This document shows positions 5,661-51,293 of a stretch of DNA of 64,000 nucleotides, in pieces. How positions within the stretch are numbered: position 1 is the first letter of the stretch; each line of letters opens with the position of its first letter. The translations under genes and the position numbers were made by a program. A model generated the notes under the pieces. The model worked only from the letters and a program-made list of their open reading frames with translations, did no database searches and had not been told where the DNA came from. This stretch comes from a virus: UHGV virus genome UHGV-0240017; one strand, written 5' to 3'.

Positions 5661-5708
5661 TCAAAAAAAAAATAAAAAACATCTACCGCCCATAGAATCG
5701 GGCGGTAG
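5661..5708 (-). terminator. intrinsic terminator
   Basis: Hairpin ctaccgcc-catagaatcg-ggcggtag followed on the minus strand by a long U-run (plus-strand A-run 5661-5679). Confidence 0.7.
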
Positions 5709-5742
5709 ACAGTCATTTTACAGCTAAAAATCTAAGTAGTTA

Positions 5743-7471: not shown

Positions 7472-7473
7472 GT

Positions 7474-9109: not shown

Positions 9110-9154
9110 TTTCTTTTCTCCTAATCATTAAAATAGCCACAGTTGTAAAAAAGA

Positions 9155-9676
9155 CTACGGGTTAAAAGGCAGCGGTTTGCAATCCCGCTTTTTCAACTCC
9201 TCTACTAGCTCAGGTAATGTACACCAACGTTTAAATTTGTTGTTGGCTTTAAAGTGACTAAGAATTTCCTCTACACGTTCAATCGACCACTTCCCTTTAC
9301 CCACGTTATCTAAATCTTTACGTAGCGAGAGCGTCTCAATGGTAAACGCTAATTCTGAACTGTCCGAGTGGTCGTAGAGCAGTCTTACCGGTGCGGGATG
9401 ATGTAGCGTAACGCGCCAACCTGACTCCTTAGTCCAGTAGACATCTTTAATTCGGCCACTGGCGTCAATTACGGAACTGATATAAGTCCAATCGGTATCC
9501 AATTTGTTCTTTTCGGCGGTTAATGCATCTTCTAATCGTAAAGAGTTAGGGGACGGAATCCACCAACCGTATTTACCGTAATAATCGTCTATTACGGTAA
9601 TACCTTCGTAATACAAATATTGTGTTTTTGTATTCACGAATATTTCATCGCAGATTAAAACCGCATTTATCTTCAT
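9155..9676 (-). CDS. hypothetical protein
   Basis: 173-aa ORF; no motif recognised. Confidence 0.55.
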   Translation of the reverse strand: MKINAVLICDEIFVNTKTQYLYYEGITVIDDYYGKYGWWIPSPNSLRLEDALTAEKNKLDTDWTYISSVIDASGRIKDVYWTKESGWRVTLHHPAPVRLLYDHSDSSELAFTIETLSLRKDLDNVGKGKWSIERVEEILSHFKANNKFKRWCTLPELVEELKKRDCKPLPFNP

Positions 9677-10164
9677 CGTAAACCCTTCCTGTAAAACAAG
9701 TCGTAAGTGGTCGAGCTAGACGGATCAATAGAACCTACCAATGGCATAATTTTCTTTTCTGATATTCCAGTTGCCCAAGCAGCCCGCGCAAATCCTCCAC
9801 CAGAACCCGTTGCCCAAACCGCATTTTTATTTATTACAAACGTTTTAAACTTATCTGCCACTAATGTCAGCCAATGTGTTTCTCTAGCCGTAAAAATGAC
9901 TATTTGATCGAATATTCGCTCTTTTTCGATAAGATCCGCAAGCAAGGGCTCAACCTTCTTACGTTTATCCTCGTCTAAATATTCTTCTATAGCAGCGGTA
10001 ATCGACATTTTCCAAAACTCGGTGTCCAGTACACGTTCGCCCGTGTAGAAAACAAACTTGTTTTTGTGTTTATGCAGTTTGGGCAATTCTTTAACCGTAC
10101 CAGCATAATCCACAAGTCGGTCAGCTAAAATGTAATCCTTTGTTACCAATACCGTTGTCATCAC
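9673..10164 (-). CDS. hypothetical protein
   Basis: 163-aa ORF; ATGA overlap with the downstream gene. Confidence 0.55.
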   Translation of the reverse strand: MMTTVLVTKDYILADRLVDYAGTVKELPKLHKHKNKFVFYTGERVLDTEFWKMSITAAIEEYLDEDKRKKVEPLLADLIEKERIFDQIVIFTARETHWLTLVADKFKTFVINKNAVWATGSGGGFARAAWATGISEKKIMPLVGSIDPSSSTTYDLFYRKGLR

Positions 10165-10169
10165 ACACC

Positions 10170-10212
10170 TCGAAGAAAAATAAAAGTACCCTCTCTCCTA
10201 ACGGAGAGAGGG
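10170..10212 (-). terminator. intrinsic terminator
   Basis: Perfect 10-bp stem ccctctctcc-taac-ggagagaggg followed on the minus strand by a U-rich run. Confidence 0.75.
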
Positions 10213-10219
10213 GCACTGC

Positions 10220-10489
10220 TTAAATTTTACGGCTGCTACCGTAGCAGCCACGACCGGCTGTCGTTTTCGCAGCACTGACAGGCGCTAACGCAGCCATCGT
10301 ACCATCGGCCTTAACAATGTGTAAGTTATTTACGCGAGTCAGACCTTTAAAGGTAATCTTCACACCCTTACGTAAACTCTTCACATCAAATCCGTCGAGT
10401 TTGAGTGTTTTAACTTTTTCAGGTTTACCTTCTTCGTAATAGGAAAGAACATTACCTGTACGTTTTTCAACAATATAAATCTTACCCAT
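10220..10489 (-). CDS. small basic hypothetical protein
   Basis: 89 aa; GGAG RBS about 11 nt upstream; degenerate copy of the conserved promoter-like motif upstream. Confidence 0.55.
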   Translation of the reverse strand: MGKIYIVEKRTGNVLSYYEEGKPEKVKTLKLDGFDVKSLRKGVKITFKGLTRVNNLHIVKADGTMAALAPVSAAKTTAGRGCYGSSRKI

Positions 10490-10521
10490 TTTAGATTACT
10501 CCATTTAGTTAAGTGAGAACT

Positions 10522-10547
10522 CTCACATAGATGAAATATATCTTAAA
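10522..10547 (-). promoter_or_regulatory. degenerate copy of the conserved promoter-like motif with palindrome GTGAGA-AC-TCTCAC
   Basis: ctcacatagatgaaatatatcttaaaa resembles the 27-nt motif at 15795, 42950 and 51206. Confidence 0.35.
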
Positions 10548-10559
10548 ATTTTTAAACCG

Positions 10560-10870
10560 TTAACTGAACAAAGCAATGTTAACCGACTTACCAGGTAGCG
10601 GGAAATGCTGTAGTTCTATTGACTGAAGTTTCCTGTCAATAGTCAGTATTTCATCAACGTTGGGCGTAAGACGGAATACGGCGCGCGGTAGCGTGAAAGG
10701 TACGTTCGTCGAGCAGTTGTTTAACAGTAACTGATCCTGAGAATAGTCAATTTCTACCACCCTCGCAATTACCCAACGTTCGTGAATCTCGCCACCCAGC
10801 GGTGCAGTTAGTGCCCGTTGCAAGCGCTGTGAATTCGTTTCATCGGTATTAGTGTGGTTTTGGTTCGACA
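10560..10870 (-). CDS. hypothetical protein
   Basis: ORF track 10560..11039; start moved to internal ATG at 10870 to limit overlap with the better-looking 10849..11166 ORF. Confidence 0.4.
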
Positions 10871-11166
10871 TAAGTTTCCCCAAACACGTACGCAGATTCT
10901 GTTTCAAGCGTCGGTTTAGCGACACGCCACTTCCATGCACCGGTTTCAGGATCTTGCCAGGACAACAAAAGAGAACCCTCACAAATTTCAGAGGTATCGA
11001 CCTCAGGGTGGAACAACATGAATTCGTTTTCGTTGTCATCCACTACGACGAATTGACCTTCTTCTACCCTTTCGAACTTAGCAACACCTACTACAGTTGC
11101 CGGTTCCCCAACGGTAAACACCATTTCTTGTTTTGGTAAATCACGGTGAATCGCACTTAACCACAT
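10849..11166 (-). CDS. hypothetical acidic protein
   Basis: 105-aa ORF with balanced composition. Confidence 0.5.
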   Translation of the reverse strand: MWLSAIHRDLPKQEMVFTVGEPATVVGVAKFERVEEGQFVVVDDNENEFMLFHPEVDTSEICEGSLLLSWQDPETGAWKWRVAKPTLETESAYVFGETYVEPKPH

Positions 11167-11217
11167 TTAAGCTGTTCCTCAATTAATTTGTTTACGTGTG
11201 CATAATTAGACGCGGAA

Positions 11218-11260
11218 GCGTAAAAATAAATTCTCCCTCCCTCCAAACGGAGAGAGGGAA
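11218..11260 (-). terminator. intrinsic terminator
   Basis: Stem ctccctccctcc-aaac-ggagagagggaag (one wobble pair) flanked by an A/T run; same family as the 10170 terminator. Confidence 0.7.
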
Positions 11261-11263
11261 GGT

Positions 11264-11770
11264 TTACAGTACGTTTTCTTCGCGATCGTCTACTAACACA
11301 GAAGTAATCACATAACGCGCTAAGCGATTACGTGCTTCTTCCGTTTCTTCTTCAGAAGGTAGCTGTTCGCCCGCAGGCGCACACAACGTTAGCCCAGACT
11401 CACGAAGCTGTTCGGCATAGTCTTCTACGGCTGTGTCGAACGTACCACGAATACCTGCTACCGCATCCATAATTTCGTCGTTCGGAATAATGGATTCTTT
11501 TAGCACAGCGTGAGCATCTGTAGGCTCCACCATTTGCAGGTTCTGTTCTACCAGCAACGCCTGTTTCGCTAAGCTGTCGGTGATAAAGCAAGACAGAATC
11601 TTTTCGAAATCGTCTAACGAGAATTCGGTGTCTTCAGATGCCCCGGTAATCAATTGCCCGTAGCGATTAAAGAATTCTTTACAACGTGTTTCGTAGTCAG
11701 CTTCTAAGTCGCGAACACCGAGATCAAAATCGTGCTGCTCCAGCTGATTAAAATCCAGAGTCTCTTTCAT
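11264..11770 (-). CDS. highly acidic hypothetical protein
   Basis: 168 aa, very Asp/Glu-rich throughout. Confidence 0.55.
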   Translation of the reverse strand: MKETLDFNQLEQHDFDLGVRDLEADYETRCKEFFNRYGQLITGASEDTEFSLDDFEKILSCFITDSLAKQALLVEQNLQMVEPTDAHAVLKESIIPNDEIMDAVAGIRGTFDTAVEDYAEQLRESGLTLCAPAGEQLPSEEETEEARNRLARYVITSVLVDDREENVL

Positions 11771-11808
11771 CTCTAAGTCTCCAGTTAAGAGGTCATATTA
11801 CCTGCTGG

Positions 11809-12036
11809 CTAGAGTACCAACGTTAACCCGGTATGGGTTTGTGCTGAACCAACGCCATCACGCGCTTTTGCTTTGGCGATAAGTTTGTCAATTACACGTT
11901 GATGACTGCGAGTAATATCTTTACCTGGATAACCGATAATCAGCACGTTCTCAGCATTAATAACCGCCGAGAACTCGTTATCACCTGCAACATAAGCAAT
12001 CTTTTTGTCTTTGGTTACAATACGTTTGATTTCCAT
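11809..12036 (-). CDS. hypothetical protein
   Basis: 75-aa ORF. Confidence 0.5.
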   Translation of the reverse strand: MEIKRIVTKDKKIAYVAGDNEFSAVINAENVLIIGYPGKDITRSHQRVIDKLIAKAKARDGVGSAQTHTGLTLVL

Positions 12037-12045
12037 TCAATGTCC

Positions 12046-12819
12046 TTAAAAGATAAAATGACCAGTTAATGCTTCTGCTTCAACACCAGGCATCGATGGA
12101 GGTGCTGAATATGGAAAAGTAAGACGCACGGTTGCGCCCTTTAAATACGCAATACGGTAGTACGTGGTCAAGAGCGCATTCCCGTAAGTACAATCGTTAT
12201 AGAAGAAACCTTCGGTGGCAAACGTCTTTTCGTTGATTTTCGAATAGACTAAGATACCTTCAACTTTACCATCTTTACGGCAGCACAAACCTTCTGCTGC
12301 ACCAATCGCTAACAATTCCAGGCAGCGCGTATCCAAACTGACATTAACCACCTTAGTGATCGTAAACGTTTCTTCTAACGTTAGAGATTCAATATCATCT
12401 ACATCAGGCAAATCGGTGCGAACTTCAGGTTTTTCAGTAAACGTCAGCTCATAATCGATGAACGACGGCTGCATACGCAAGAACGCCATTAACTGATCGC
12501 GACGTTTTAGGTCATTGGCAGGGTATGTGACATCAAACACCTCTACATTTAACAAACGTTTGAGTTGTGCGAAATTAATTTTCTTCTTCGCAAACACAAC
12601 GATTGCCGACATGTAGAAAATCTTACCATCGGCGCGACCGGAGAAGACACATTGCAGCTGATTCGTGTTCGAAAGAATGATAAAGGTCGGATCTTCAGAT
12701 TCGCGAATGATGTCTTTTTCTATCAACCCTTTTCGTAGACGGGTTAGCGAAACTATTCTACCACCCACACCAATTGCTAAATGGTCATTACGATAATCGT
12801 CAATATCCACTATACGCAT
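12046..12819 (-). CDS. hypothetical protein
   Basis: 257-aa ORF. Confidence 0.55.
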   Translation of the reverse strand: MRIVDIDDYRNDHLAIGVGGRIVSLTRLRKGLIEKDIIRESEDPTFIILSNTNQLQCVFSGRADGKIFYMSAIVVFAKKKINFAQLKRLLNVEVFDVTYPANDLKRRDQLMAFLRMQPSFIDYELTFTEKPEVRTDLPDVDDIESLTLEETFTITKVVNVSLDTRCLELLAIGAAEGLCCRKDGKVEGILVYSKINEKTFATEGFFYNDCTYGNALLTTYYRIAYLKGATVRLTFPYSAPPSMPGVEAEALTGHFIF

Positions 12820-13634
12820 TAGAGCACTCCCAGTAATTCAGTCACCGTTTTCCGAGTAGCGCCAGACGCACCCATATAGCGACCAACCTCAATACTGCGC
12901 CACTCAAAACCGTAATAAATTTCTCGGGTGAGTAGGGTGTCTGCATTTGACAACACAACACTGTTGCCACGTTCCACCTGTTGCTGTAGTAACTTGGCTA
13001 ATTCACGATGATCCGTTTGTGAGAATTCTTTACGGTGGTATTGCGCGTGTTTCGCGGTATCCGATAACGGAATATAAGGAGGATCAGCATAAATCACAGC
13101 ATCTTCAGGTGTCCGTGCTAATACAGAGCGAAAGTCCTCACAAACAATTTCCAGATACTCAACTTCTGCACAACGTTTAGCCCAATCCCGAATTTCTTCT
13201 AATGGATAATAAACCCCATTCGGGTAACGTCCAAACGGAACATTGAACCCACCGCTACTGTTATAGCGACACATACCGTTATAACCGTGACGCATTAAGT
13301 ATAAAAACATCGCAGCACGCTCAACTTCTGACATCGATTTACCGCTATTAAACAGCTCACGACGCTCCATATACTTTACAGTAGTATTACCGTCTAAGAA
13401 CAACGGTTGCGACGCAGCGATCAGTTCTTCAGGCTGTTCACGCGCAACACAAAGTAAGCGTATCAAATCGGGGTTAGAATCCGATAGAATATACCGGCTG
13501 TAATTCGTATTTAGGAAAACAGACCCTGCGCCCACAAACGGTTCTACAAAGGTTGTACGTTTAGGTAAGACCTTTTGTAATTCACCCAAAACGCGCGTTT
13601 TCCCACCCATCCATTTAATTATCGGTTTCCGCAT
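12819..13634 (-). CDS. dam: DNA adenine (N6) methyltransferase, Dam family
   Basis: MRKPIIKWMGGKTRVLGEL...FVEPFVGAGSVFLNT (SAM-binding motif) and DPPY catalytic motif; colinear with E. coli Dam as I recall it. Confidence 0.9.
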   Translation of the reverse strand: MRKPIIKWMGGKTRVLGELQKVLPKRTTFVEPFVGAGSVFLNTNYSRYILSDSNPDLIRLLCVAREQPEELIAASQPLFLDGNTTVKYMERRELFNSGKSMSEVERAAMFLYLMRHGYNGMCRYNSSGGFNVPFGRYPNGVYYPLEEIRDWAKRCAEVEYLEIVCEDFRSVLARTPEDAVIYADPPYIPLSDTAKHAQYHRKEFSQTDHRELAKLLQQQVERGNSVVLSNADTLLTREIYYGFEWRSIEVGRYMGASGATRKTVTELLGVL

Positions 13635-14613
13635 TATATCCGCCTTGTAACGATGATACTTCGTCGCCTAACACCAGCTCGACACGATTTTTCCGACGCT
13701 CCCAACTGACGACGTCATCGTCGCGCACTAAAACAAATTCGTACTCGTAGGACCGAAATTTAAATAATTCGACGACCAGGTGTCTAAATGCAGGGTTGTT
13801 ATTGAAACACCCTATCTCCAATGGTGCCGCTGTTGTCGATGCAATCTGCAGAGCACGGTATAACAAAGTCCGTCCGATACCACGCCCCCGGTGTGTTTCA
13901 CTTACCGCAATGGCTTTTAATTCACACTCGTTAAGATTACGCAATTTAACTTGCACCACGCCCACAACATCGTTGCCGTCCATCCAAACGTAGGTGTGGT
14001 GGTTGACGTGACGTACTAACTCCACCAACGTTTCGACTTGTGGCATGATTTGTCGTGTGCGACCTACAGGGTCACCGTTGATGTTTTCAACGACACTCGT
14101 GCCTAAAAGCAACATAAGCTGTTCACGTTGTGCAGCGGTTAACTCTTTATAAAAATCGCCGGAGATATTCTTCACGTTTGTTGGTAGAGCGATATCCAAT
14201 AACGAGCGTGTACCTAAACGATACGTAGTGTGGGTGTGTCTAAATCCTAAGTCATTAAGCTCAGAGATTTCTTCTACACCACTGGCGATTCGATTAAGAT
14301 ACGTAAAACCGGTGTAGTCGAGTACCAGTAGTAGGTTCAGTTTGTTCAAACAACCTGGTACAATTTCATGCATAAACAAGCAGTGTAACGTTGGATCGCC
14401 GTAAATGTGTTTTGTGATGATAAACCCTTGAATTGTTTTTCCTTTTTGTAAAGAGAACGTATTCAGCTCACTATTGCACAACGCCTCACGAATCACAGCA
14501 CCGTTAGGACCCGATAAACATGTCTGTAGCTGAGGGTTGCGAATATCTCTACGTGCTAACCGACCTACTGTTAAATCCGTGGCGGTACGTTCTATAGTCT
14601 TCCTAAAAGCCAT
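13615..14613 (-). CDS. protein with C-terminal GNAT acetyltransferase domain
   Basis: 332 aa; acetyl-CoA-binding motif IAVSETHRGRGIGRTLLYRAL in the C-terminal third. Confidence 0.55.
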   Translation of the reverse strand: MAFRKTIERTATDLTVGRLARRDIRNPQLQTCLSGPNGAVIREALCNSELNTFSLQKGKTIQGFIITKHIYGDPTLHCLFMHEIVPGCLNKLNLLLVLDYTGFTYLNRIASGVEEISELNDLGFRHTHTTYRLGTRSLLDIALPTNVKNISGDFYKELTAAQREQLMLLLGTSVVENINGDPVGRTRQIMPQVETLVELVRHVNHHTYVWMDGNDVVGVVQVKLRNLNECELKAIAVSETHRGRGIGRTLLYRALQIASTTAAPLEIGCFNNNPAFRHLVVELFKFRSYEYEFVLVRDDDVVSWERRKNRVELVLGDEVSSLQGGYNAETDN

Positions 14614-14659
14614 GTTAATTACTCCTTAAAAGGTCGTCTCAAAACAATACGCTAAAGCT

Positions 14660-14695
14660 GTAAAAACAAAAAAGAAAGGGGAACCGAAGTTCCCC
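14660..14695 (-). terminator. intrinsic terminator (UUCG loop)
   Basis: ggggaac-cgaa-gttcccc, read on the minus strand as GGGGAAC-UUCG-GUUCCCC followed by a U-run. Confidence 0.7.
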
Positions 14696-14707
14696 AATTA
14701 TTAAACA

Positions 14708-15364
14708 TCATGCAAAAGGGGCAGAACTTGTGAAAGCATTATTGGGAGGTAGGCCAGGTTTCCCCAGCTTTTCATGCAGATAATTGAAAAATCTACGATG
14801 GGCTTCGTAGTGACCAGCCGCTACTCGTTGTCCGTAAACCTCTACCAAGTCAGGCGAAAACTTAACATGGCTGTTTTGGCCAGAGAACGAAGGTTGTTGT
14901 GCCCCATCATTAATTAAGATGGGGTACTTTTTACCATCGTCTGTTACGGCATAGAGTATATTTGTATTAAAGTGGAAATAGATAGAAGGGTTAAAGCATA
15001 ACCAGGTGGCGGCATTGATTAGTAAGTCAGCTAACTTAACAGCGATTTTGTCAAGTTCAGGCCCTTCAAACTTATGCACTAAGCGCAGGAAGATTTCAGT
15101 AATAACGGTGCCTGTAAGTAACTTGTCTCTATTAAGACCAGGCGCAACTGCCAGAACATCGCCATTATAGGTGCAGACAAGTGTGAACATGTTGAAAGGT
15201 TGGTAATGATAAATATCGAAAACCAGGTCAGTATACGGGCTATAAGTTAAGAACTTCACCCCGAGTATTTCATTAACACAGGGTAAAAGTTCAATCTTCA
15301 CAGCCGGTTGAACTTCGTTGGTTTTAGTCTCATTCTTTACAGTTTCTTTAGTTTTCGGTGCCAT
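14708..15364 (-). CDS. hypothetical protein
   Basis: 218-aa ORF. Confidence 0.55.
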   Translation of the reverse strand: MAPKTKETVKNETKTNEVQPAVKIELLPCVNEILGVKFLTYSPYTDLVFDIYHYQPFNMFTLVCTYNGDVLAVAPGLNRDKLLTGTVITEIFLRLVHKFEGPELDKIAVKLADLLINAATWLCFNPSIYFHFNTNILYAVTDDGKKYPILINDGAQQPSFSGQNSHVKFSPDLVEVYGQRVAAGHYEAHRRFFNYLHEKLGKPGLPPNNAFTSSAPFA

Positions 15365-15385
15365 GATAATACTCCTTCAGGTTGA

Positions 15386-15745
15386 TTAGTGTGTTGCAGT
15401 GTTAGTGATAAAACGCACATTCTTCTTGGTACGTTTAATGGACGTGTTTGCAACGTAGTCCAATGCGGACTCTACGTGAACGGTTACTGAGCAACGACCC
15501 TTAACGGAATTAAAACTAATCTGATATTTCAGACGAATCGCATCAGCAACTTTCATCATAATCGGCAAGCTTAAACGTTCTACGCGTTCGTTCTTAATAG
15601 ATGAGATAACGGGTTGTGAAACTTTCGCAAGCTGGGCAAGCTCACGCTGGGTAATGTCTTTCGTGGTCAAATGACAAACTACGTAAGACAAATGAAGGCC
15701 AAATTTACGTTTTGCCAGAACGATGGAATTGTGATTGTAAGCCAC
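15386..15745 (-). CDS. helix-turn-helix DNA-binding protein (putative transcriptional regulator)
   Basis: HTH signature ITQRELAQLAKVSQPVISSIKN; GTG start with AAAGGAG RBS 8 nt upstream; conserved promoter-like motif ~50 nt upstream. Confidence 0.55.
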   Translation of the reverse strand: MAYNHNSIVLAKRKFGLHLSYVVCHLTTKDITQRELAQLAKVSQPVISSIKNERVERLSLPIMMKVADAIRLKYQISFNSVKGRCSVTVHVESALDYVANTSIKRTKKNVRFITNTATH

Positions 15746-15794
15746 GGTAATACTCCTTTAGGTTAACAAGTCGGTGTAAAGAGTTAATTGTAAC

Positions 15795-15820
15795 TCTCAC
15801 CTAAGTAATATATATCTGAG
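15795..15820 (-). promoter_or_regulatory. conserved promoter-like motif (coding strand TCAGATATATATTACTTAGGTGAGAG) plus downstream hairpin
   Basis: One of three near-identical copies; about 50 nt upstream of the start codon; followed by inverted repeat gagttaattgtaactc. Confidence 0.55.
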
Positions 15821-15858
15821 AAAAAATAAAATATAGGTACCACCGTTGGGTGGTACCT
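15818..15858 (-). terminator. intrinsic terminator
   Basis: aggtaccaccgttgggtggtacct stem followed on the minus strand by a U-run. Confidence 0.7.
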
Positions 15859-15864
15859 AAGCGG

Positions 15865-16488
15865 TTAGTTTGCTAAAATGTGCGTAACAATCTCTGCGGC
15901 TTTCAAACGGTAATCGTCATTCTGCGTTACCGGTAATAACGTGTGAAGACAACCGCCTTCTGTTAAGATGTGGTGTGCGAAACGATAATGGTCGCGTAAG
16001 CCATCCCAACATTGGTTGTCTTTTAGATACTTAACAGTAAGTACCTCGTCATCCCAATTCTTACCTTGTTCTTCTACGCGTTTCTTAAATCGCGCTAACG
16101 CTGTTGGGTAATCAACATCTGTCCAAACATAAAGGTCAGGAGTGTGGAAATGACGTGTTAGCTTACGTTGGAAAACCACGTCCTTACCATCTGTCCCCTG
16201 ATAAACGATCGTTGAAGGACAGAAGCGATCGAAAATAACGACATCGTACTCGTCAACAACATGGTCTAACGTGTGAAGGAAATCATCACACATTGCTTCA
16301 GCAATTTTTGTTTTCGAAGCAGACTGTACAACCAAGCTACGTGCACGAATGCCTGCCTCGGTTTCAGATGTCGGATGGTTCCGAACGCAAACTTTTAATC
16401 CTGCGGATTCCAACATCGCTTTTACCATTTTACACAACGTCGATTTTCCAGAAAAATCAGGACCATCAATAGACACTGTCTTAAGCAT
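15865..16488 (-). CDS. tmk: thymidylate kinase-like dNMP kinase
   Basis: P-loop GPDFSGKST plus downstream DRF...S..VYQG signature matching the Tmk DRY..S..AYQG motif. Confidence 0.65.
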   Translation of the reverse strand: MLKTVSIDGPDFSGKSTLCKMVKAMLESAGLKVCVRNHPTSETEAGIRARSLVVQSASKTKIAEAMCDDFLHTLDHVVDEYDVVIFDRFCPSTIVYQGTDGKDVVFQRKLTRHFHTPDLYVWTDVDYPTALARFKKRVEEQGKNWDDEVLTVKYLKDNQCWDGLRDHYRFAHHILTEGGCLHTLLPVTQNDDYRLKAAEIVTHILAN

Positions 16489-16559
16489 TATTGTTTTACC
16501 TTTTTACGCACGTTAAGTGAAACTTCTCACAATGAGGGTAACAGTTGTAATAATTTACA

Positions 16560-16596
16560 ATAAAAAAGAAACCCGCCCCTACCGTTAAGTAGGGGT
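16560..16596 (-). terminator. intrinsic terminator
   Basis: cccctac-cgttaa-gtagggg hairpin with flanking A/T runs. Confidence 0.65.
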
Positions 16597-16602
16597 AAGG
16601 TT

Positions 16603-17208
16603 TTATTGGTGATCAACAATCGGATCACTCCACACTTCTGACGTTTCCGGCATAGCGAGATTAGCAGCCTGTGCAGACGGAACGCACAGCAAGACTAACC
16701 CTTGTTTAGCAAGATAATGTTGCATTCTTGCAGCCTGCACAGCGGTGTCCACAATAACGAGCTCAGCGCCACGTAGAAGCGTTAGAGCCGCTTGTCCCTC
16801 CTGTGGCGTGGTTAAAGCATCACTGTCGTCCAGAATGCGTTTAAGGCGGTTATACGCCAGTCCGGTTACATTACTTCGACCTGCACGAAGATCGACAACC
16901 ATATCGTTGTATTCCCCCACCACTTGTTGCGTCGAGTTTGGATAAAATCGAAACGCAGCACGGCGACGTTTACGTCGCACCTCAGAAATCGCACGTTGTA
17001 AAACCAGCAAAACGTATTTCGGAGCCGCTTCGCTATTCGGTCGACGCATCTTGGCTAAACGTGCAGCTAAATCCAAAATTTTCGTTAAGGGATAGCGATG
17101 TTTAAACCCGTCGCGTTCGATAGTAACGCCACGCTTAGGCAACTTGCCTGTTTTGTTGATATACGATACTGTAATCAATAGTAATGAATCGAGAATCATC
17201 TCTGACAT
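16603..17208 (-). CDS. hypothetical protein
   Basis: 201-aa ORF. Confidence 0.5.
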   Translation of the reverse strand: MSEMILDSLLLITVSYINKTGKLPKRGVTIERDGFKHRYPLTKILDLAARLAKMRRPNSEAAPKYVLLVLQRAISEVRRKRRRAAFRFYPNSTQQVVGEYNDMVVDLRAGRSNVTGLAYNRLKRILDDSDALTTPQEGQAALTLLRGAELVIVDTAVQAARMQHYLAKQGLVLLCVPSAQAANLAMPETSEVWSDPIVDHQ

Positions 17209-17222
17209 TACAAGGCCCTCTC

Positions 17223-17594
17223 TTAGAACCCCTCAAGAACAGCTTTCACAAATTCGTAAACCGTGCGTCGGTGTTCTTCAAGCGGATAAACAAACTTAGA
17301 ATAATCGTTGTTCCAGACAACCGGATAGAGGTCGCCGTCACAACTTAAATAGCTCTTACGAACCATGTAATAATCTAAACCTACACGGAAGTTTAACGAC
17401 AGACTACCGTGTTTACTACAAACGTGTAGCTGGAGCGATTTCACACCGTCGTGGGTTGGTGATTCAATCGTTTCCGCATACAATACATCCGAACACTGTT
17501 CTATAGCGCTAACGACATCTCTGAGGTTGTTGTCTGCATCGATGGTCGCTTTTCGGAGAGCGTCGGTGTATTGCTGAAGTTCTCGATAGAACAT
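17223..17594 (-). CDS. hypothetical protein
   Basis: 123-aa ORF; GGAG RBS upstream of the ATG at 17594; overlaps the 3' end of the upstream ORF by 94 nt. Confidence 0.5.
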   Translation of the reverse strand: MFYRELQQYTDALRKATIDADNNLRDVVSAIEQCSDVLYAETIESPTHDGVKSLQLHVCSKHGSLSLNFRVGLDYYMVRKSYLSCDGDLYPVVWNNDYSKFVYPLEEHRRTVYEFVKAVLEGF

Positions 17595-18133
17595 CCTGCT
17601 AATCTCCTGTCTCTACCGTAAGGTAGGGGAAATGCTTTGTGTTCATATTCTGCAACGACATACGCAGGATAGAACAAAAGGTATTTATAGAACGTAGACA
17701 ACGTAACGTTTTTCTGGGTGGCTAAAAAGTAATTAAGATCGGGGTTGTCTGGAAAAGCAAAATGCAATCCTGTGTATACCTGACCTTTATACTCCCCATT
17801 AAAGGGTGTGACTGCACATCGTGGGTGTGTCGGCTCGACGTGTAACCAACGACTTCTTACGTGATAAACGCCACGGACTGTCGCGTTTCGTGTTTTACCC
17901 AAATAACGGCAACGGATATTCTTTTCCCACGCCGCACGTTGAGTGGGTGAACCCAGAGAAACAAACCGCGTTAAAGCTTCAGGTGTAAAGTAATCAAAAA
18001 TGCCGGTCGGTAAACACCAACACGCTTTATCGATTCGTACCACTCTCCAACCAGGACGAAAACCCACAGCGTAACGCTCTACACCAAAAGTATATCTAGA
18101 CCCGTCATGAAACGGTACTAATCTTGCAGCCAT
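17501..18133 (-). CDS. hypothetical protein
   Basis: 210-aa ORF; the last ~30 codons overlap the next gene. Confidence 0.5.
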   Translation of the reverse strand: MAARLVPFHDGSRYTFGVERYAVGFRPGWRVVRIDKACWCLPTGIFDYFTPEALTRFVSLGSPTQRAAWEKNIRCRYLGKTRNATVRGVYHVRSRWLHVEPTHPRCAVTPFNGEYKGQVYTGLHFAFPDNPDLNYFLATQKNVTLSTFYKYLLFYPAYVVAEYEHKAFPLPYGRDRRLAGCSIENFSNTPTLSEKRPSMQTTTSEMSLAL

Positions 18134-18134
18134 T

Positions 18135-18602
18135 TTAGATTTCCTTTATCATTTCCCTGCATTCGGTACGGAATCCCATCTTCTCATACAAGGAGATAGC
18201 TTTAACGTTGTTGTCTAACACATCCAGACTCATCCAACCACAGCCTTTGGACTTTCCGTATTCACGGACTTTGTCCATAAGCGCACGGCCTACCCCTTGA
18301 GAGCGTGCTTCAGGAACCACATAGTAATTCCCGATGTAAACAAACGTGTCCTTTGAGCAAGAACCCATTGAGAACGTCATAAATCCCAGAAGCTGTTCGT
18401 TGTCGTCCACCGCACACGCACAGAGATAATCTTGAGGCCAAATCTCTTCTAAACGTTCGATGGGGTTGAACGTGTCACGTCCGGTTAACTGACTAATACG
18501 CACTTTCTCTTCTGCGAACAGCATGTTGTGCAGTTTGAGTACCTGGTCGCCGTATAACTTTCCGTATTTACTGTCGGGTTTGAGAATAATAGTAATACGC
18601 AT
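18135..18602 (-). CDS. GNAT family N-acetyltransferase
   Basis: 155 aa; acetyl-CoA-binding motif VVPEARSQGVGRALMDKV and typical GNAT length. Confidence 0.75.
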   Translation of the reverse strand: MRITIILKPDSKYGKLYGDQVLKLHNMLFAEEKVRISQLTGRDTFNPIERLEEIWPQDYLCACAVDDNEQLLGFMTFSMGSCSKDTFVYIGNYYVVPEARSQGVGRALMDKVREYGKSKGCGWMSLDVLDNNVKAISLYEKMGFRTECREMIKEI

Positions 18603-19735
18603 TATTTAACCTCAATCAGCGACAACCTGCACCATTCCAGTAAGCCCTCCGCAACACGCACCAACGAAGTAGTAAAGGCATCTTCTAAACGCAGCGCGTT
18701 TTTATACCGGACAGTAGCATCGCGTAACTCACGACCATCTAACGATTTCAGCTCTTTTTTCATTCGCTGAACTTCATCGTAAATACCGGTATAACCAACA
18801 CTACGTCGTTTCGTACCACGCTGACGTAACGCTCGGATAATGTTTCTAACAGCATCGAGAGCTGAACCGATTTCGTGCAAGTTCAGAGATTTGATTGTGT
18901 GGCCAAAATCACCATCGCGGGCAATCGCCCACTCAATCTTACCGTTGTCGTGTTCAACGACCACCACGTTACCAGGCCACGGATACGCTTTCACCGTTTT
19001 AAACGGATCAATAATACCGAACAGTCCTGCGCTTCGTTTAATCGCCCAGTTCGTTGACCGACCCACTTTCTCCAAACCGCTCTCGGTAACTTTCTTGCTC
19101 TTACCGATAATAGTGCGTGTTTTAACGGTATACTCGTTGACCATCGCATCCATTGCGCTCAAGTTCTTACTGAATTCAATACATGCTTTTACGTTAGGCT
19201 TGTCTTCTAAACAAACTTTGGTTGTCCAACTTCCCGTGTCGCAGTCGACCGGCTTTAACGTGTCCTTGATGCCGAGTAAACTTAGCTTTGCGGTTAACTT
19301 TTGCAGTTTGCGTTCTAAAGTCGTCGCTTTAGACGTCGCTTCTTTTAATTCCTTTATGACTTCTTTACCGGCGGCTTCCGCGAAGTCGACAAAACGTAAC
19401 GCAAGTTGCTTAGAATGCTTACCTGCGAAGTTTCCAGTTGCCTTAGCCCCCGCTACCGCTGCCTTTCCAGCAACACGACTAGCCCCTTTAACCGCTCTGC
19501 CGGTCGCGCGTGCGACCGCTTTACCTACTCCTGCGTAAGGCTCAGTGTCCGCAACAAATTGCGCGCGCTCCATCATCGCTGCAGACTCTAGCGCAACCTG
19601 CACATCGTCTAAAACCCACCGTTTTCGGATAGCGACAATCGCCGGATAATTGTCTTTAACATTAAGCGACTCTAACGCGACCAGTCGATCATAGTCATCG
19701 CAAAGGACTTCTAAATCGGAATCTAATGTTGACAT
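18602..19735 (-). CDS. hypothetical protein
   Basis: 377-aa ORF with an Ala/Lys-rich N-terminal segment. Confidence 0.55.
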   Translation of the reverse strand: MSTLDSDLEVLCDDYDRLVALESLNVKDNYPAIVAIRKRWVLDDVQVALESAAMMERAQFVADTEPYAGVGKAVARATGRAVKGASRVAGKAAVAGAKATGNFAGKHSKQLALRFVDFAEAAGKEVIKELKEATSKATTLERKLQKLTAKLSLLGIKDTLKPVDCDTGSWTTKVCLEDKPNVKACIEFSKNLSAMDAMVNEYTVKTRTIIGKSKKVTESGLEKVGRSTNWAIKRSAGLFGIIDPFKTVKAYPWPGNVVVVEHDNGKIEWAIARDGDFGHTIKSLNLHEIGSALDAVRNIIRALRQRGTKRRSVGYTGIYDEVQRMKKELKSLDGRELRDATVRYKNALRLEDAFTTSLVRVAEGLLEWCRLSLIEVK

Positions 19736-19785
19736 CCTTTACCCCATTTTAAGCTAAAGCGGGGAGAAGCCCGCCCTGACTAACT

Positions 19786-20334
19786 TCATAATAAGCGTAG
19801 GTCTTCTAACCACTTAGACGCATCGGTAACATGGTAGTAACACTGGATGTTCAGCGACTGCGCATAACGAACACCCATTGCTGTACCACCTTTTGGATTT
19901 CCCTTTTTATCGTGTTCAGCGTAATAATAGACCGCATCTACGGGGTTGTCTAAAGCGTCACCGGATACAATATTTAAGTTTCGTCCATGCAAAGCCCAGG
20001 CTATATCCGACAGTTTATCGGGATTAGGGTGAAGCGATGCCACAATCCCACGATAACGAATGTCTTGAGGGATAACGCGAAAGTCAACATTCGGATGTAA
20101 CTTACGTAACCACAACTTACGATCGTCGGGCAAATAGCAAATATGTGGACCTGGTTCAGTACGCGCTAACATAAACTGTAATTGGTCTGGCCCTTTATAA
20201 CAACCACCCGAACGGGTTTCGATTTTGTGCTGTTTATTACGAAGAATTTTGAACCCGCGTTGCAACACGTCCAACATTTCTTGCATCGTGTCTTCGGGCG
20301 TTTCTCGAGAACCAATAATAGCGATTTTATACAT
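19786..20334 (-). CDS. Rossmann-like SLOG/DprA-like domain protein (tentative)
   Basis: N-terminal KIAIIGSRE resembles the DprA/SLOG GSR motif; glycine-rich GNPKGGTAMGVRYA later. Confidence 0.3.
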   Translation of the reverse strand: MYKIAIIGSRETPEDTMQEMLDVLQRGFKILRNKQHKIETRSGGCYKGPDQLQFMLARTEPGPHICYLPDDRKLWLRKLHPNVDFRVIPQDIRYRGIVASLHPNPDKLSDIAWALHGRNLNIVSGDALDNPVDAVYYYAEHDKKGNPKGGTAMGVRYAQSLNIQCYYHVTDASKWLEDLRLL

Positions 20335-20364
20335 TTGTCACCTCCATACTGAAGTTGTGAAGTG

Positions 20365-20407
20365 AAAAAAAAAGAAAGCAGGAGAGAACCCCGAAAAGGT
20401 TCTCTCC
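20365..20407 (-). terminator. intrinsic terminator
   Basis: ggagagaacc-ccgaaaag-gttctctcc hairpin preceded on the plus strand by an A-run. Confidence 0.7.
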
Positions 20408-20421
20408 TATCGTTGACGATA

Positions 20422-21084
20422 TCACCCTTCTAAACTACTTAAAACGGCAGTTTCGAGTAACGCTTTACCCATCCAGACATCCAACTCACCATCTAAGTCA
20501 GCTAAAGGGCGCTTATCCAGTTCGTTGTTGTAGTTAAGTCCGTCAAGGGTTTTATTCGTAATAATTTGCCCAATATGAAGCGGTAGAATAAAACGATTTC
20601 GTGCGCTATAAATAAACGAATCACATTCGTAAACTACCGCATAGCGCTCAAGATCGTCATCATACTCAACATGGCACTGCGAGCCAGTGTCCCATGCACG
20701 TGACAAAATCATACCACGATCTTGACACATCTTCTCTACTGACGCTTTCGCGGACTTTGCCCATTTATCGTAATTTTTCGGTTGGCCGTTTTCGAAATCG
20801 AACCAATCCAGATACTTACCGGGAATCTCAAGAAAGTCGTTTAGTTGAAGTTTTGTGTAAGATACCATCACCGCGTCATTAATATCGTTGCGGTTAGTTA
20901 ACTTTACCCGATACCGACCTTCCGGTGTGGGTGCACCCATTAAAGAAACATCCACTTTCTCAGCCGAAAGCTTTTTACGTACACTGCCGTTATTACAGTA
21001 GCTGACGAGGTTGAGTAAGTTCTGTCTATGACCAACTTCAAAATCAATTACAAAAGACATACAAACTCCGCGGGGGTTAATCAC
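20422..21084 (-). CDS. hypothetical protein
   Basis: 220-aa ORF. Confidence 0.5.
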   Translation of the reverse strand: MINPRGVCMSFVIDFEVGHRQNLLNLVSYCNNGSVRKKLSAEKVDVSLMGAPTPEGRYRVKLTNRNDINDAVMVSYTKLQLNDFLEIPGKYLDWFDFENGQPKNYDKWAKSAKASVEKMCQDRGMILSRAWDTGSQCHVEYDDDLERYAVVYECDSFIYSARNRFILPLHIGQIITNKTLDGLNYNNELDKRPLADLDGELDVWMGKALLETAVLSSLEG

Positions 21085-21476
21085 TAATACCCGTATAACG
21101 GGTAGCGTGCGGTGATCTCATCACCGACATAAAAAGTTAAACGTTGGATTTTAATACTTTTATTTACATAGGGTACAGTTTCTAACGTTACCTTTACACC
21201 GGCAGAACAGCTTCCAGGATCAACAAACTGATATGTACGTCGTTTGATATTTACCAAATAGTAGCCACCCGCTGGGCACAGTTCGGTTTTGCCATAATTT
21301 ACCGTGGCAAACTCATCGTTTTGAACCGCAACGACTGGTTGGTCGGTAGATTTAAATACGACAGGTTTATCCCCTGGCACCGTAGGTTCAAAACGACTAA
21401 TATCGTGCGGTTTAAATTCCGCTATCGCGGAAAATGAAAGTAACGTTAGAAAAAGGGTAATAACAGATCTTTTCAT
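21084..21476 (-). CDS. secreted hypothetical protein
   Basis: 130 aa; signal peptide MKRSVITLFLTLLSFSAIA. Confidence 0.5.
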   Translation of the reverse strand: MKRSVITLFLTLLSFSAIAEFKPHDISRFEPTVPGDKPVVFKSTDQPVVAVQNDEFATVNYGKTELCPAGGYYLVNIKRRTYQFVDPGSCSAGVKVTLETVPYVNKSIKIQRLTFYVGDEITARYPLYGY

Positions 21477-21952
21477 CAGTATACCTCATCAAGATGTTCG
21501 CGTAGCCATGGTTTCGACTCTAAGCGCGGAATCATGTTCCGCGTGTTCGGCGAAAACCATAACGCTTCGCGATATTTCTTTTTGAAACGTTCCCAGTGAT
21601 ACGAGAATGGCTTGGGTGTAAAACCGCGCTCTTTTAGCACCTCCTCCCAAACCAAGTCTTTAATAAAATCATCCACTAAAATTAATACCAGCGCTTTCCA
21701 TTTACTACGTCGGTAGTGCCGTGTAAAAGATTTGCGGAGATCAGAAAAGTCCTCTCGTCGCCGAGAACGTACTGCTGGAGTTGCCTTCTCTTTAAATTGC
21801 GAACAAGGATTATGTTCTATTATCGTTACAGGAACACCCCGAACACGACCTGTACGCAAGTCAATCTCGTGAGCGGGGATAACTTCAACGCAACGTAACA
21901 CTTTTGCTTTATTGCCTTCCAAGCACCGCGTCTCATATTCGACACGAATCAT
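21476..21952 (-). CDS. basic hypothetical protein
   Basis: 158 aa, Arg/Lys-rich. Confidence 0.5.
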   Translation of the reverse strand: MIRVEYETRCLEGNKAKVLRCVEVIPAHEIDLRTGRVRGVPVTIIEHNPCSQFKEKATPAVRSRRREDFSDLRKSFTRHYRRSKWKALVLILVDDFIKDLVWEEVLKERGFTPKPFSYHWERFKKKYREALWFSPNTRNMIPRLESKPWLREHLDEVY

Positions 21953-21971
21953 TTTGGGCTCTCAACCATTT

Positions 21972-22448
21972 CTAATAAATCTTATCCGCAACAGAGAGAA
22001 AGATGGGGGTGTTTTCAATAAAATCCACCAAATATCCTTCTTCTGGCGGGGTGTATGACGAATCAATGTTACTGTTCGTCATACGAAAATACCGACGGGA
22101 GTCACTGGCAATAAACCATCGGTCTATTTGGAAGCCTTTTTTGGAAAAGAAACATAGACCGTCGATGTTTGAGGGATGAACACGACACATCACCATTTGA
22201 CGATCTGAATTAAGTTGAACGTATTTCAGTAAAAAAGAACCTACACCGCTACGACGAGAACCTTCAGCCACCACCAGATAGATAAGATTCCCCGGCTCCC
22301 AGATTACAACCCCGTGTGTAATATCATCTTCAACGGCCAACGTAATTCTAACTGGCGTTTCTCGAATCGAATTTAAATCTTTCACATATTCGCGCAATTC
22401 AGGAAATTTAGTGGAGATTTTGTCTTCGGTAATATTTAACGGTTGCAT
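21972..22448 (-). CDS. GNAT-like acetyltransferase (putative)
   Basis: VVAEGSRRSGVGSFLLKYV resembles GNAT motif A. Confidence 0.5.
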   Translation of the reverse strand: MQPLNITEDKISTKFPELREYVKDLNSIRETPVRITLAVEDDITHGVVIWEPGNLIYLVVAEGSRRSGVGSFLLKYVQLNSDRQMVMCRVHPSNIDGLCFFSKKGFQIDRWFIASDSRRYFRMTNSNIDSSYTPPEEGYLVDFIENTPIFLSVADKIY

Positions 22449-23128
22449 TATTGATCCCCTATCGATAAAACGTTTTTAACAAATTCATCCCACGTGGTAT
22501 TCCCACCAGAAGTAAATAAACTGCTAAGTGGAACGTTTCGATGCTGTGGAATAATCGCATCAAGTTTCGTTACTGGAACTTCGCTCCATAAAGCCCAACC
22601 ATACAACCCTTCCACCGTTTTTCTCTCACCACGAAGGGATGGCACCCACCAGGTAAACTGTATGAATCTTTTACCACGACAGATTTTAAGGCTGGTAGTA
22701 AAACCGTGGTCTAACATCCGAACGTCGTCAAACTTACAATTAATCGAGAAAAGACCATAACGGGCAAGCAATCTCCTTATCTGAAGCCTTAGGTCATTCT
22801 GATAGTCGTTCAATTCGACAGCGTCTACATAAACCTGTCCCTTCCCAACTCCAAACCCTTTCTTTTCTAAATGCTCCGCTATTAACGCAGACGTACTCCC
22901 CTCCACACCCGGACAATCTAAACTGCCAGATAAAGGTACTGCACGATAATAGCGATGGACCGTCTCTTGGAAAGCGGTCGTAACAATTTTTTCGTCTTTA
23001 GCGAAATCAACAATTTCCCCATTAGAGGTGACCAACGGTCCAACCTTCAGGTCCTGAATAGGTATCAGTAACGTTCTGGTCATTAAGCGTAATGGTTCCA
23101 CAATAGCACTCCTTCTTTTAAGTCTCAC
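22448..23128 (-). CDS. hypothetical protein
   Basis: 226-aa ORF. Confidence 0.5.
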   Translation of the reverse strand: MRLKRRSAIVEPLRLMTRTLLIPIQDLKVGPLVTSNGEIVDFAKDEKIVTTAFQETVHRYYRAVPLSGSLDCPGVEGSTSALIAEHLEKKGFGVGKGQVYVDAVELNDYQNDLRLQIRRLLARYGLFSINCKFDDVRMLDHGFTTSLKICRGKRFIQFTWWVPSLRGERKTVEGLYGWALWSEVPVTKLDAIIPQHRNVPLSSLFTSGGNTTWDEFVKNVLSIGDQ

Positions 23129-42753: not shown

Positions 42754-42760
42754 TTATACA

Positions 42761-42904
42761 TTAACCACGACCAGTGCACTGTGCAACGGAATTACCGTTG
42801 TCGATGCAAGTGTCGTAGCCTTTGTCGATATCCAGGTACAGGCAACCCAGAACAACAGCGATAACAACAGCGAAGATAGCTTTTTTGTGTTTTACAGAAA
42901 TCAT
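42761..42904 (-). CDS. small membrane/lipoprotein-like peptide (47 aa)
   Basis: Own translation MISVKHKKAIFAVVIAVVLGCLYLDIDKGYDTCIDNGNSVAQCTGRG; signal-peptide-like N-terminus with VLGC lipobox-like site and 4 Cys; AGGAG RBS; conserved promoter-like motif upstream; not in ORF track (<60 aa). Confidence 0.5.
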   Translation of the reverse strand: MISVKHKKAIFAVVIAVVLGCLYLDIDKGYDTCIDNGNSVAQCTGRG

Positions 42905-42949: not shown

Positions 42950-42977
42950 CTCTCACCTAGGTAATATATATCTGAAA
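42950..42977 (-). promoter_or_regulatory. conserved promoter-like motif (coding strand TCAGATATATATTACCTAGGTGAGAG)
   Basis: Near-identical to the copies at 15795 and 51206; 46 nt upstream of the small-peptide start. Confidence 0.55.
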
Positions 42978-43092
42978 TCTTTTTGAATCCATATACCCTC
43001 TAGAACGCTCTAAAACGCATTCTAACGCAATTTTCTTTTTAAAGGGTAATTAGTCGTCTTAATGGAGAAATGACTTCTGTGTGGCGTTTAGG

Positions 43093-50513: not shown

Positions 50514-51155
50514 TCATAAATCTTCAAAGAAAGTAACAACTGCTTCCGAAAGACTAATTTCGAATAGTCCGAAGGTGTTCTCATCTTCGTATTCTTTACT
50601 AGCTATTAGGGGTAATAATTTAAAACAATCGAAAGCCCCATCAGTAACTTTCAACACACGTGGGATTCTTTTCATCCCTTCTATAAGTTCTGACACCGTT
50701 TCCATAACAGCTTCCGCCGATTTTTCAACGGTTTCATACACAGCTTCGTTTTCTGTTGGTGCGATTAAGTGAAAGAAACAAACTGAATCGTACATCCCAT
50801 TTTCTTTTTCACGCAATGCTACGTGACTATCAAGAAACGCATGGTACGTTACTCCGTCATATTCGGCACATCCGATGTCGCGAGTTTTATGCTTGCCGTT
50901 CAGTTCTTTAGCAATGCTGTCCAGTTTATCTTGGGTTATGTCTTTGAAAACAAACTCACGTGTACCAACTAATAAGCCACCCTTCGCTTGGTCTTTAGGT
51001 TTCTTACCAGAAAGTAAGCGCAACCAGGTAGAAATAGAAATCAGTTCTACCGGATTTAAAGTAACAACTTTACTATTCGGTGCCACCATCGTAACAACAC
51101 CTTTATCCGTAGACACAACACCATCAACAAAATCAGTTAAATTAATGCGGCTCAT
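50514..51155 (-). CDS. hypothetical protein
   Basis: ORF track 50514..51182; start set to MSRINL at 51155 (AGGAG RBS 8 nt upstream), ~50 nt downstream of the promoter-like motif. Confidence 0.5.
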   Translation of the reverse strand: MSRINLTDFVDGVVSTDKGVVTMVAPNSKVVTLNPVELISISTWLRLLSGKKPKDQAKGGLLVGTREFVFKDITQDKLDSIAKELNGKHKTRDIGCAEYDGVTYHAFLDSHVALREKENGMYDSVCFFHLIAPTENEAVYETVEKSAEAVMETVSELIEGMKRIPRVLKVTDGAFDCFKLLPLIASKEYEDENTFGLFEISLSEAVVTFFEDL

Positions 51156-51205: not shown

Positions 51206-51233
51206 TCTCACCTAGGTAATATATATCTGAAAA
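51206..51233 (-). promoter_or_regulatory. conserved promoter-like motif (coding strand TCAGATATATATTACCTAGGTGAGA) plus hairpin
   Basis: Near-identical to the copies at 15795 and 42950; followed by inverted repeat gagattac-tgt-gtaatctc. Confidence 0.55.
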
Positions 51234-51245
51234 TTATTTTAATCG

Positions 51246-51293
51246 AAAAAAAAAAGAAAAGAGAGAACCACCCCATTACAGGGTGGTTCTCTT
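51246..51293 (-). terminator. intrinsic terminator
   Basis: gagagaaccacc-ccattaca-gggtggttctc preceded on the plus strand by an A-run. Confidence 0.7.

Follow-up and report, generated by a model that had tools for sequence, protein, structure and literature searches.

A motif present in four copies in a 64,000-nucleotide stretch of UHGV virus genome UHGV-0240017 (the window) is probably an early promoter read by a virion RNA polymerase, giving transcripts that would carry a stem-loop at their 5′ end. By homology of its genes the window is assigned to a phiKZ-like jumbo phage of the SPN3US/phiEaH2 clade. Early promoters of virion polymerases are known as a kind; the copies described here are in a new relative of SPN3US and have a clade-specific, covarying stem-loop that begins at the predicted transcription start (+1), together with invariant positions -6 to +3.

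Copies of the motif in the window

The sequence TCAGATATATATTACYTAGGTGAG was found three times in the window, each time on the minus strand (15819-15796, 42975-42952 and 51230-51207), where none is expected by chance. The 24-mer TCAGATATATATTACCTAGGTGAG matched the minus strand without mismatch at the second and third of these sites and with a single mismatch, at the C/T position, at the first, and produced no match in 100 dinucleotide-preserving shuffles. A position weight matrix of 44 positions, constructed from 37 non-redundant copies collected in related phages, gave the three strong copies 55.7-65.6 bits; shuffled window sequence reached -6.4 bits at best. The degenerate copy GATATATTTCATCTATGTGAG (10542-10522, minus strand) scored 21.6 bits. 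Four related contigs carry an identical 21-mer, and in two of them homology with the window ends just upstream of the motif. All four copies are intergenic and on the coding (minus) strand; TATATTAY is absent from the plus strand, whose best matrix score was -20 bits. The distance from the 3′ end of the motif to the start codon is 50 nucleotides (nt) for GTG 15745, 47 nt for ATG 42904, 51 nt for ATG 51155 and 32 nt for ATG 10489. An earlier reading of the window from its letters alone (the sequence-only reading) had reported near-identical copies at 15795-15820, 42950-42977 and 51206-51233 and a degenerate one at 10522-10547, lying 33-52 nt upstream of four minus-strand starts; the 24-mer search, matrix and shuffles confirmed these copies and the measured distances agree with that range. 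The positions and scores of the individual copies are given in Table 1, together with a fifth, very weak variant which has a positional homologue in SPN3US scoring 13.4 bits, at 72487-72510 (L039 ~22487-22510).

Conservation of the motif in related phages

The exact 21-mer GATATATATTACYTAGGTGAG was present in 37 stretches from approximately 13 jumbo-phage contigs (IMG/VR; genomes of 220-246 kb), including SPN3US and phiEaH2, and was confined to one strand in each contig. When window positions 14000-22000 were compared by megablast with 50,697 phage records, only the motif and its leader (~15749-15833) matched, and the matches were to SPN3US-like and Erwinia jumbo phages. The sequence-only reading had proposed a motif search over a complete genome, and this was carried out in the nearest annotated relative, SPN3US. 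Nine matrix hits of at least 10 bits were obtained, all on the plus (coding) strand (best minus-strand score -1.9 bits), and all nine were intergenic and co-oriented with the downstream gene, approximately 50-150 nt before annotated starts, a distribution that favours a promoter. They precede ACQ60_gp261, gp244, gp211, gp200, a small open reading frame (ORF) after the capsid gene, gp165 encoding a helix-turn-helix (HTH) protein, gp131, gp086 and gp017, and three of them are positional homologues of the three strong copies in the window.

Across these copies the element extends from approximately -38 to +3. Its conserved upstream positions are A (-34), T (-32), AAA (-29 to -27) and TYTCA (-23 to -19), and these precede an AT-rich core GATATATATTAC (-18 to -7) which contains the phiKZ-type TATATTAC (-14 to -7). 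The core is followed by YTAGGT (-6 to -1), which is invariant, and by GAG, which occupies +1 to +3. The search patterns fixed many of the core positions, whilst the upstream positions and the hairpin were not fixed. Alternatively, such an element might be a strong sigma-70 promoter, transcribed by the RNA polymerase of an E. coli or Salmonella host immediately after injection, with TATATT as -10 and a TTGATT-like hexamer 17 bp upstream as -35. The consensus does read TTGATT-N17-TATATT, and the degenerate copy at 10542 was flagged as a 9/12 sigma-70-like site. However, none of the three canonical copies was flagged by the consensus scan, the TTG of the presumed -35 carries 0-0.5 bit, and more than 20 positions irrelevant to sigma-70 (-23 to -15 and -7 to +3) are invariant. 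Sigma-70-like sites are also not enriched, being at or below expectation (10 against 15.3 expected and 22 against 20.4) in the regions of the window scanned, 42700-51500 and 5000-17000, and phages of the phiKZ type transcribe without host polymerase (PMC7598289, PMC13282480). A host sigma-70 promoter, with its -35 unconserved and the canonical copies unflagged, is very improbable and was rejected.

A conserved variant, GATTGATATTATCTATGTGAC (29.8 bits; L038 15615-15638, SPN3US), precedes ACQ60_gp244 and, after it, an RNA polymerase beta gene. In SPN3US this variant has a leader of ~130 nt, and it recurs in three other jumbo-phage contigs (L053, L068, L089). ACQ60_gp244 has been named a diverged chimallin homologue (PMC9365700); neither BLASTP against phiKZ chimallin nor a Pfam scan returned anything for this homology, and the assignment rests on that paper. 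Gene order in phiKZ runs parallel to that in SPN3US, with chimallin gp54 followed by gp55, and phiKZ chimallin has a TATATTAC-N6-G site.

Likeness to promoters of virion RNA polymerases

In the 150 kb of phiKZ scanned, TATATTAC has 21 occurrences on the coding strand, against four on the other strand. Approximately 17 of these copies have the context aTTTaAAcAG or gAGATn-TATATTAC-N6-G and are directly upstream of genes, including that for chimallin gp54, with a G six nt downstream of TATATTAC at 17 of the 21 plus-strand sites. The sequence-only reading had likened the core to the early-promoter consensus of phiKZ-like phages, and TATATTAC was upheld by its strand bias and its position upstream of genes in the phiKZ sequence. 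The window motif aligns to the phiKZ core as AGATATATATTAC-YTAGGT-G and the likeness reaches -30, where phiKZ gp31 has AAAAATAATTAAGATATATATTAC and the window AAAAAGATTTCAGATATATATTAC; the phiKZ subclass AAAAATAATTAAGATA-TATATTAC (gp31) is nearly identical to AAAAAGATTTCAGATA-TATATTAC of the window. Described phiKZ early promoters (PMC8244752; PMC10914365) share with the window element TATATTAC at -14 to -7, the G six nt further on and conserved A/T-rich -20 and -30 regions, and in both cases copies are intergenic and co-oriented with genes, with one before chimallin. Conserved -10, -20 and -30 regions have been described for the early promoters of phiKZ and 201phi2-1 (PMC11512511), and those of phiKZ and phiR1-37 have a conserved start six nt downstream of the element (PMC5312081).

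In AR9 the early consensus, mapped by experiment, is AAATATATATTAT-(6N)-G+1 (PMC5312081). It has in common with the window element an AT-rich core, ATATATATTA, and six-nt spacing to a G start, which in AR9 has been mapped and is early and chloramphenicol-insensitive (PMC5312081). AR9 differs in having a uracil-containing genome, a Bacillus host, 41 copies and an unconserved spacer, and no hairpin is reported in the available part of the AR9 account (PMC5312081). More generally, every jumbo phage that encodes a polymerase is stated to have AT-rich motifs, centred near -10, in front of its presumed early operons, those tested being virion-polymerase early promoters (PMC7598289, citing Lavysh 2016); the window element resembles these in its conserved AT-rich motif of ~10 nt near -10, and SPN3US-type phages are in that set. 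The start site is placed at the G of GAG because the core matches both phiKZ TATATTAC-N6-G and AR9 AAATATATATTAT-N6-G+1. Conservation of the core from Pseudomonas phiKZ and Bacillus AR9 to this clade argues for a very old and rigid pairing of polymerase and promoter. No RNA polymerase subunit gene is present in the 64-kb window itself; L096 and L101, two contigs that share 96-97% identity with the window, encode a full-length homologue of SPN3US gp241 (76% identity). SPN3US gp241 is the virion RNA polymerase beta-N subunit, and mass spectrometry places it in the SPN3US head/virion (PMC5105663).

It is highly unlikely that the motif is a promoter of another temporal class (middle or late), used by the non-virion RNA polymerase or by a form of polymerase dependent on a newly synthesized factor. 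Consistent with such use, virion genes surround the copies and share their strand, and there are approximately nine copies per genome. However, non-virion promoters are different, being TATG for phiKZ late genes, a weak AT motif at -24 for phiKZ middle genes and AACA-N6-TA/G for AR9 late genes (PMC7598289), whilst the motif matches the phiKZ/AR9 early class from -30 to +1 (PMC5312081) and terminators insulate the cassettes headed by the motif from neighbouring virion genes.

The window clade differs from phiKZ in several respects. Positions -6 to +3 (YTAGGTGAG) are invariant in the clade, whereas -6 to -1 are free in phiKZ; a covarying stem-loop is predicted on the transcript; there are ~9 copies per genome against 28-32; and several copies head cassettes of one or two genes bounded by terminators. 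The invariance of -6 to -1 could reflect an operator, the palindrome ACCTAGGT (-8 to -1), bound by an early HTH protein (15745-15386) which would autoregulate and shut off the other copies. ACCTAGGT is an 8-bp palindrome whose only common variants among 72 instances, ACTTAGGT (20) and ACCTAAGT (7), are mutual reverse complements, so that variation is confined to one symmetric base pair, and the HTH gene keeps its own copy of the motif in both SPN3US and the window. Against this, the palindrome is present in 31 of the 72 instances and nearly half of the strong copies break it, nothing links the HTH protein to the motif, and conservation from -38 to -9, shared with phiKZ and AR9, is left unexplained, so an operator would at best be an overlay on a promoter. 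Autoregulation by the HTH protein, which the sequence-only reading had suggested, gained no specific support. Since the same motif precedes genes that are unrelated to one another, 3-4 of them in the window and 9 in SPN3US, finding it before the HTH gene indicates only shared membership of a promoter class. The operator explanation is very improbable.

A putative stem-loop at the predicted transcript start

Downstream of the motif copies are inverted repeats that begin at the predicted +1 (the G of GAG) and differ in sequence between copies. That each copy is followed by a different hairpin had been noted in the sequence-only reading and was borne out, the hairpins being non-random relative to shuffles and random GAG sites and showing compensatory changes. 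A total of 64 distinct leaders were compared for ungapped stems starting at +1 to +3, with random GAG sites and shuffles as controls. Stems of at least 8 bp were found in 28% of leaders, 4% of random GAG sites and 2% of shuffles (Mann-Whitney p = 4e-11), and stems of at least 6 bp in 58%, 20% and 16%, respectively. An anchor-offset scan gave a peak at +1, which is also the commonest 5′-most paired base, and reached background a few nt downstream. The 31 stems anchored exactly at +1 comprise 21 distinct arm sequences, and each position from +3 to +8 shows 3-5 types of Watson-Crick pair. Leaders with GAT, GAA or GAC in place of GAG have ATC, TTT or GTC in the 3′ arm. A covariance model built from 10 copies found 46 sites, and in the resulting alignment 93% of cells pair, compared with 75% in shuffles (0 of 500 reaching 93%), 53 cells are changed on both sides, compared with 16.7, and the covariation score is 0.339, compared with 0.116, with slid controls at or below 0.066. 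When G-U pairs were allowed, stems were longer on the sense than on the antisense strand in 31 cases and the reverse in 12 (p = 0.006), a preference that favours an RNA structure on the transcript.

The hairpins have short, AT-rich stems of varying length with energies of -5 to -9 kcal/mol and loops of 3-13 nt lacking a conserved base, and the stems are followed by T-rich TTTA(C/A) and not by long T-runs. Rfam gave no match anywhere in the window, leaders included. Stems of at least 6 bp follow 19% of phiKZ early promoters, which is the background level, and the hairpin is thus a feature of the SPN3US/phiEaH2/CR5-like clade and not of the whole promoter family. Two exceptions were observed in phiKZ, where stems of 8-9 bp from +1 follow the promoter of chimallin (gp54) and one further promoter (phiKZ 45568 and 266882; L092 45568-45610, L094 36548-36590). 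No description of the +1 hairpin of this clade was found in the literature searched, which did not include the motif survey of Lavysh 2016.

Two other roles for the hairpin, considered jointly, are very improbable: a promoter-proximal attenuator or pause site (stem plus UUUA), or a DNA recognition hairpin like that of N4 with the true start further downstream. The stems are indeed followed by T-rich TTTA(C/A), phiKZ terminators consist of hairpins followed by TTAT (PMC10914365), and N4 virion polymerase promoters require an extruded hairpin centred at -11 (PMC4496689). However, the AT-rich +1 hairpins were all missed by the terminator scan that finds nearby GC-rich terminators, and an attenuator or terminator was rejected since they fail the criteria of a GC-rich stem and U-run. 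N4 resembles the proposed system in having an injected virion polymerase and a small hairpin at each early promoter (PMC4496689), but there the hairpin is in DNA at -11 with conserved bases and is used by a single-subunit enzyme with gyrase and single-stranded DNA-binding protein, whereas here it is variable and downstream of the core. Loop (3-13 nt) and stem length vary with no conserved loop base, unlike in N4, a start beyond so variable a hairpin would lie at a variable distance from the invariant core, the G-U pairs favour the sense strand, and the polymerase of this clade is multisubunit (PMC5105663). The DNA hairpin promoter was therefore rejected on geometry, variable loops and polymerase type.

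Proposed mechanism

In the preferred explanation, that of an early promoter read by a virion RNA polymerase, the phage would package a multisubunit RNA polymerase in the virion and inject it with its DNA, and this polymerase would recognize the motif and start transcription at the G of GAG. A stem-loop with its 5′ arm starting at +1 would form from the first ~20 nt of the transcript and hide the 5′ end from 5′-end-dependent decay (RppH/RNase E), and the most likely role of the stem-loop would be that of a stabilizer; the remainder of a ~50-nt leader, a strong Shine-Dalgarno sequence and the gene would follow. The copies would in this way drive small early cassettes located among virion genes, encoding the HTH protein and an ORF, a membrane or lipoprotein-like peptide of 47 amino acids (aa), and proteins of 213 aa and 89 aa. 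The ompA leader of enterobacteria is a 5′-terminal stem-loop stabilizer of mRNA, in which a stem from the first nucleotide blocks 5′-end-dependent decay. As in stabilizers of this type, the hairpin here would be at the extreme 5′ end, given the predicted +1, leaving essentially no unpaired nucleotides ahead of the stem, with structure and not sequence conserved; it differs in being joined to a whole phage promoter class and in its short, AT-rich stems, and its stabilizing role is a presumed one. In a broader interpretation, which is unlikely, the +1 stem-loop would be a clade-specific signal in every virion-polymerase transcript, acting in promoter escape by a sigma-less polymerase or in the handling of early mRNA and its export from the early-infection vesicle; the promoters would then be bipartite, of DNA plus RNA, and ACYTARGT (-8 to -1) might also be an operator through which the HTH protein shuts off the class.

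Several observations weigh against an early promoter with a transcript stem-loop. The degenerate copy 4 departs from the core at positions where work on AR9 suggests that the polymerase is intolerant (PMC5312081), and of the four hairpins in the window two are weak (42954-42936 and 10526-10513). Fold z-scores of single whole leaders are individually unremarkable, the hairpin signal being a population-level result, and the covariance-model alignment is fitted to the model and so leans towards structure, although the independent anchored analysis agrees with it. The +1 at the G of GAG is placed by analogy, and invariance of the core is in part due to ascertainment because the search patterns fixed many of its positions. 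Finally, there are ~9 copies per 240-kb genome, compared with 28-32 early promoters in phiKZ, so these copies may represent a subset, for example an immediate-early one, or other variants may exist.

The copies provide a sequence-defined map of a presumed immediate-early regulon for the enterobacterial nucleus-forming phages of SPN3US/phiEaH2 type; SPN3US is a genetic model for the clade, and neither promoters nor transcriptomes of SPN3US were found in the literature searched. The invariant -6 to +3 and the covarying +1 hairpin, which phiKZ is without, offer handles for mutagenesis of promoter recognition by a virion polymerase that has no known sigma-like subunit. If this polymerase can be reconstituted, the element could serve as a compact orthogonal promoter part.

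Gene cassettes headed by the motif

Three of the copies have a strong terminator immediately before them, and each of the four is followed by one after one or two genes, indicating that the copies head compact small cassettes (Table 1); the terminator scan found none upstream of copy 4. Scans of window positions 42700-51500 and 5000-17000 gave 24 terminator-like sites against 8.5 expected, and this enrichment without one of sigma-70-like sites fits a phage that is independent of host RNA polymerase. Leaders are ~50 nt long and end in a strong Shine-Dalgarno sequence. Approximately one third of leaders contain a recurring box, (C)GAC(T/C)ATC, before the Shine-Dalgarno AAGGA, or CGACTTGTTAACC further upstream; examples of the box are found in L004, L015, L037, L043 and L071 and at window 15771-15755.

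The HTH protein of unit A matches Pfam HTH_37, HTH_26 and HTH_3 and PHROG 7126, and the unit is syntenic with SPN3US, in which thymidylate kinase, promoter and HTH gp165 follow in the same order. The peptide of unit B has SPN3US gp200 (144 nt) as its positional homologue, a gene with a motif copy of its own at 65414; for the promoter of unit C the positional homologue is that of SPN3US gp211, at 56295. Beyond the HTH domain, no function was assigned to the cassette products by Pfam or PHROG. Cassettes with the order terminator, promoter, gene and terminator mark candidate genes for host takeover or anti-defence.

When contigs L108 and L110 were compared with window 10513-10700 (minus strand), homology was lost upstream of approximately -30 of copy 4, whilst the motif, leader and 89-aa gene are nearly identical, indicating that promoter and 89-aa gene travel together as an exchangeable cassette. 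A mobile or recombination repeat without a transcriptional role is unlikely given the fixed orientation of the motif and its position between terminator and Shine-Dalgarno sequence, yet promoter and gene do move as cassettes.

Table 1. Positions of motif copies, predicted stem-loops, terminators and gene units in the window
Feature	Position	Strand	Details
Early-type promoter copy 1 (predicted), -38 to +3	15796..15836	-	A/T-rich upstream part and core GATATATATTACTTAGGTGAG (15816-15796); predicted +1 G15798; 55.7 bits
Early-type promoter copy 2 (predicted)	42952..42992	-	Core 42972-42952; predicted +1 G42954; 64.7 bits
Early-type promoter copy 3 (predicted)	51207..51247	-	Core 51227-51207; predicted +1 G51209; 65.6 bits
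Degenerate promoter-like copy 4, function uncertain	10513..10562	-	Core GATATATTTCATCTATGTGAG, 10542-10522; 21.6 bits
Fifth, very weak variant	36066-36086	-	GATAGATATTATTAAAGGGAG; 1.8 bits; immediately behind the terminator of the major capsid protein, ahead of a tiny ORF
Predicted 5′-terminal stem-loop, transcript 1	15779..15798	-	GAGAGUUA-caau-UAACUCUU; 8 bp; +1 to +20; covariance model 48.1 bits
Predicted stem-loop after copy 2	42954-42936	-	Imperfect, weak; covariance model 28.3 bits
Predicted stem-loop after copy 3	51209-51191	-	8 bp; covariance model 41.2 bits
Inverted repeat after copy 4	10526-10513	-	Weak; GTGAG-AGTT-CTCAC
Terminator of thymidylate kinase gene	15834..15859	-	Intrinsic; abuts promoter copy 1; 11 pairs, 6 GC, T-run; kinase by Pfam
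Unit A	14708..15745	-	Cro/C1-type HTH protein 15745-15386 (GTG start) and 218-aa ORF 15364-14708
Terminator closing unit A	14678..14695	-	Intrinsic
Unit B	42761..42904	-	47-aa peptide; hydrophobic N-terminal segment, VLGC motif; PHROG 8574
Terminators bounding unit B	43135-43108, 42753-42738	-	Terminator scan
Unit C	50514..51155	-	213-aa protein of unknown function
Terminators bounding unit C	51292-51262, 50508-50487	-	Terminator scan; the first after the phiKZ_IP gene
Unit D	10189..10489	-	89-aa protein 10489-10220 (PHROG 12339) and terminator 10212-10189

Identity of the phage

The window has a GC content of ~45% and its minus strand carries nearly all genes. Its phiKZ-type major capsid protein (764-aa ORF, 36158-38452) is 78-80% identical to those of Asesino and phiEaH2 (Erwinia) and SPN3US (Salmonella), and the ORF at 51310-52602 was identified by Pfam as the internal head protein phiKZ_IP. 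Gene order is syntenic, in reverse, with SPN3US ~47-112 kb, the thymidylate kinase gene being followed by that for the HTH protein in both. At the DNA level there is no close GenBank phage in the collection searched; three IMG/VR contigs (151-225 kb) are 88-97% identical. The tail fibre protein (1480 aa, window 436-4878, minus strand) is a mosaic, with parts 55-75% identical to tail fibres of P1, P7, RCS47 and T-even phages, which suggests that the host is E. coli-like and that receptor-binding modules have been exchanged horizontally. Long antisense ORFs of 752 aa (36218-38476, plus strand) and 436 aa (51283-52593, plus strand) span the capsid and internal-head-protein genes, and these most likely represent non-coding shadow ORFs.

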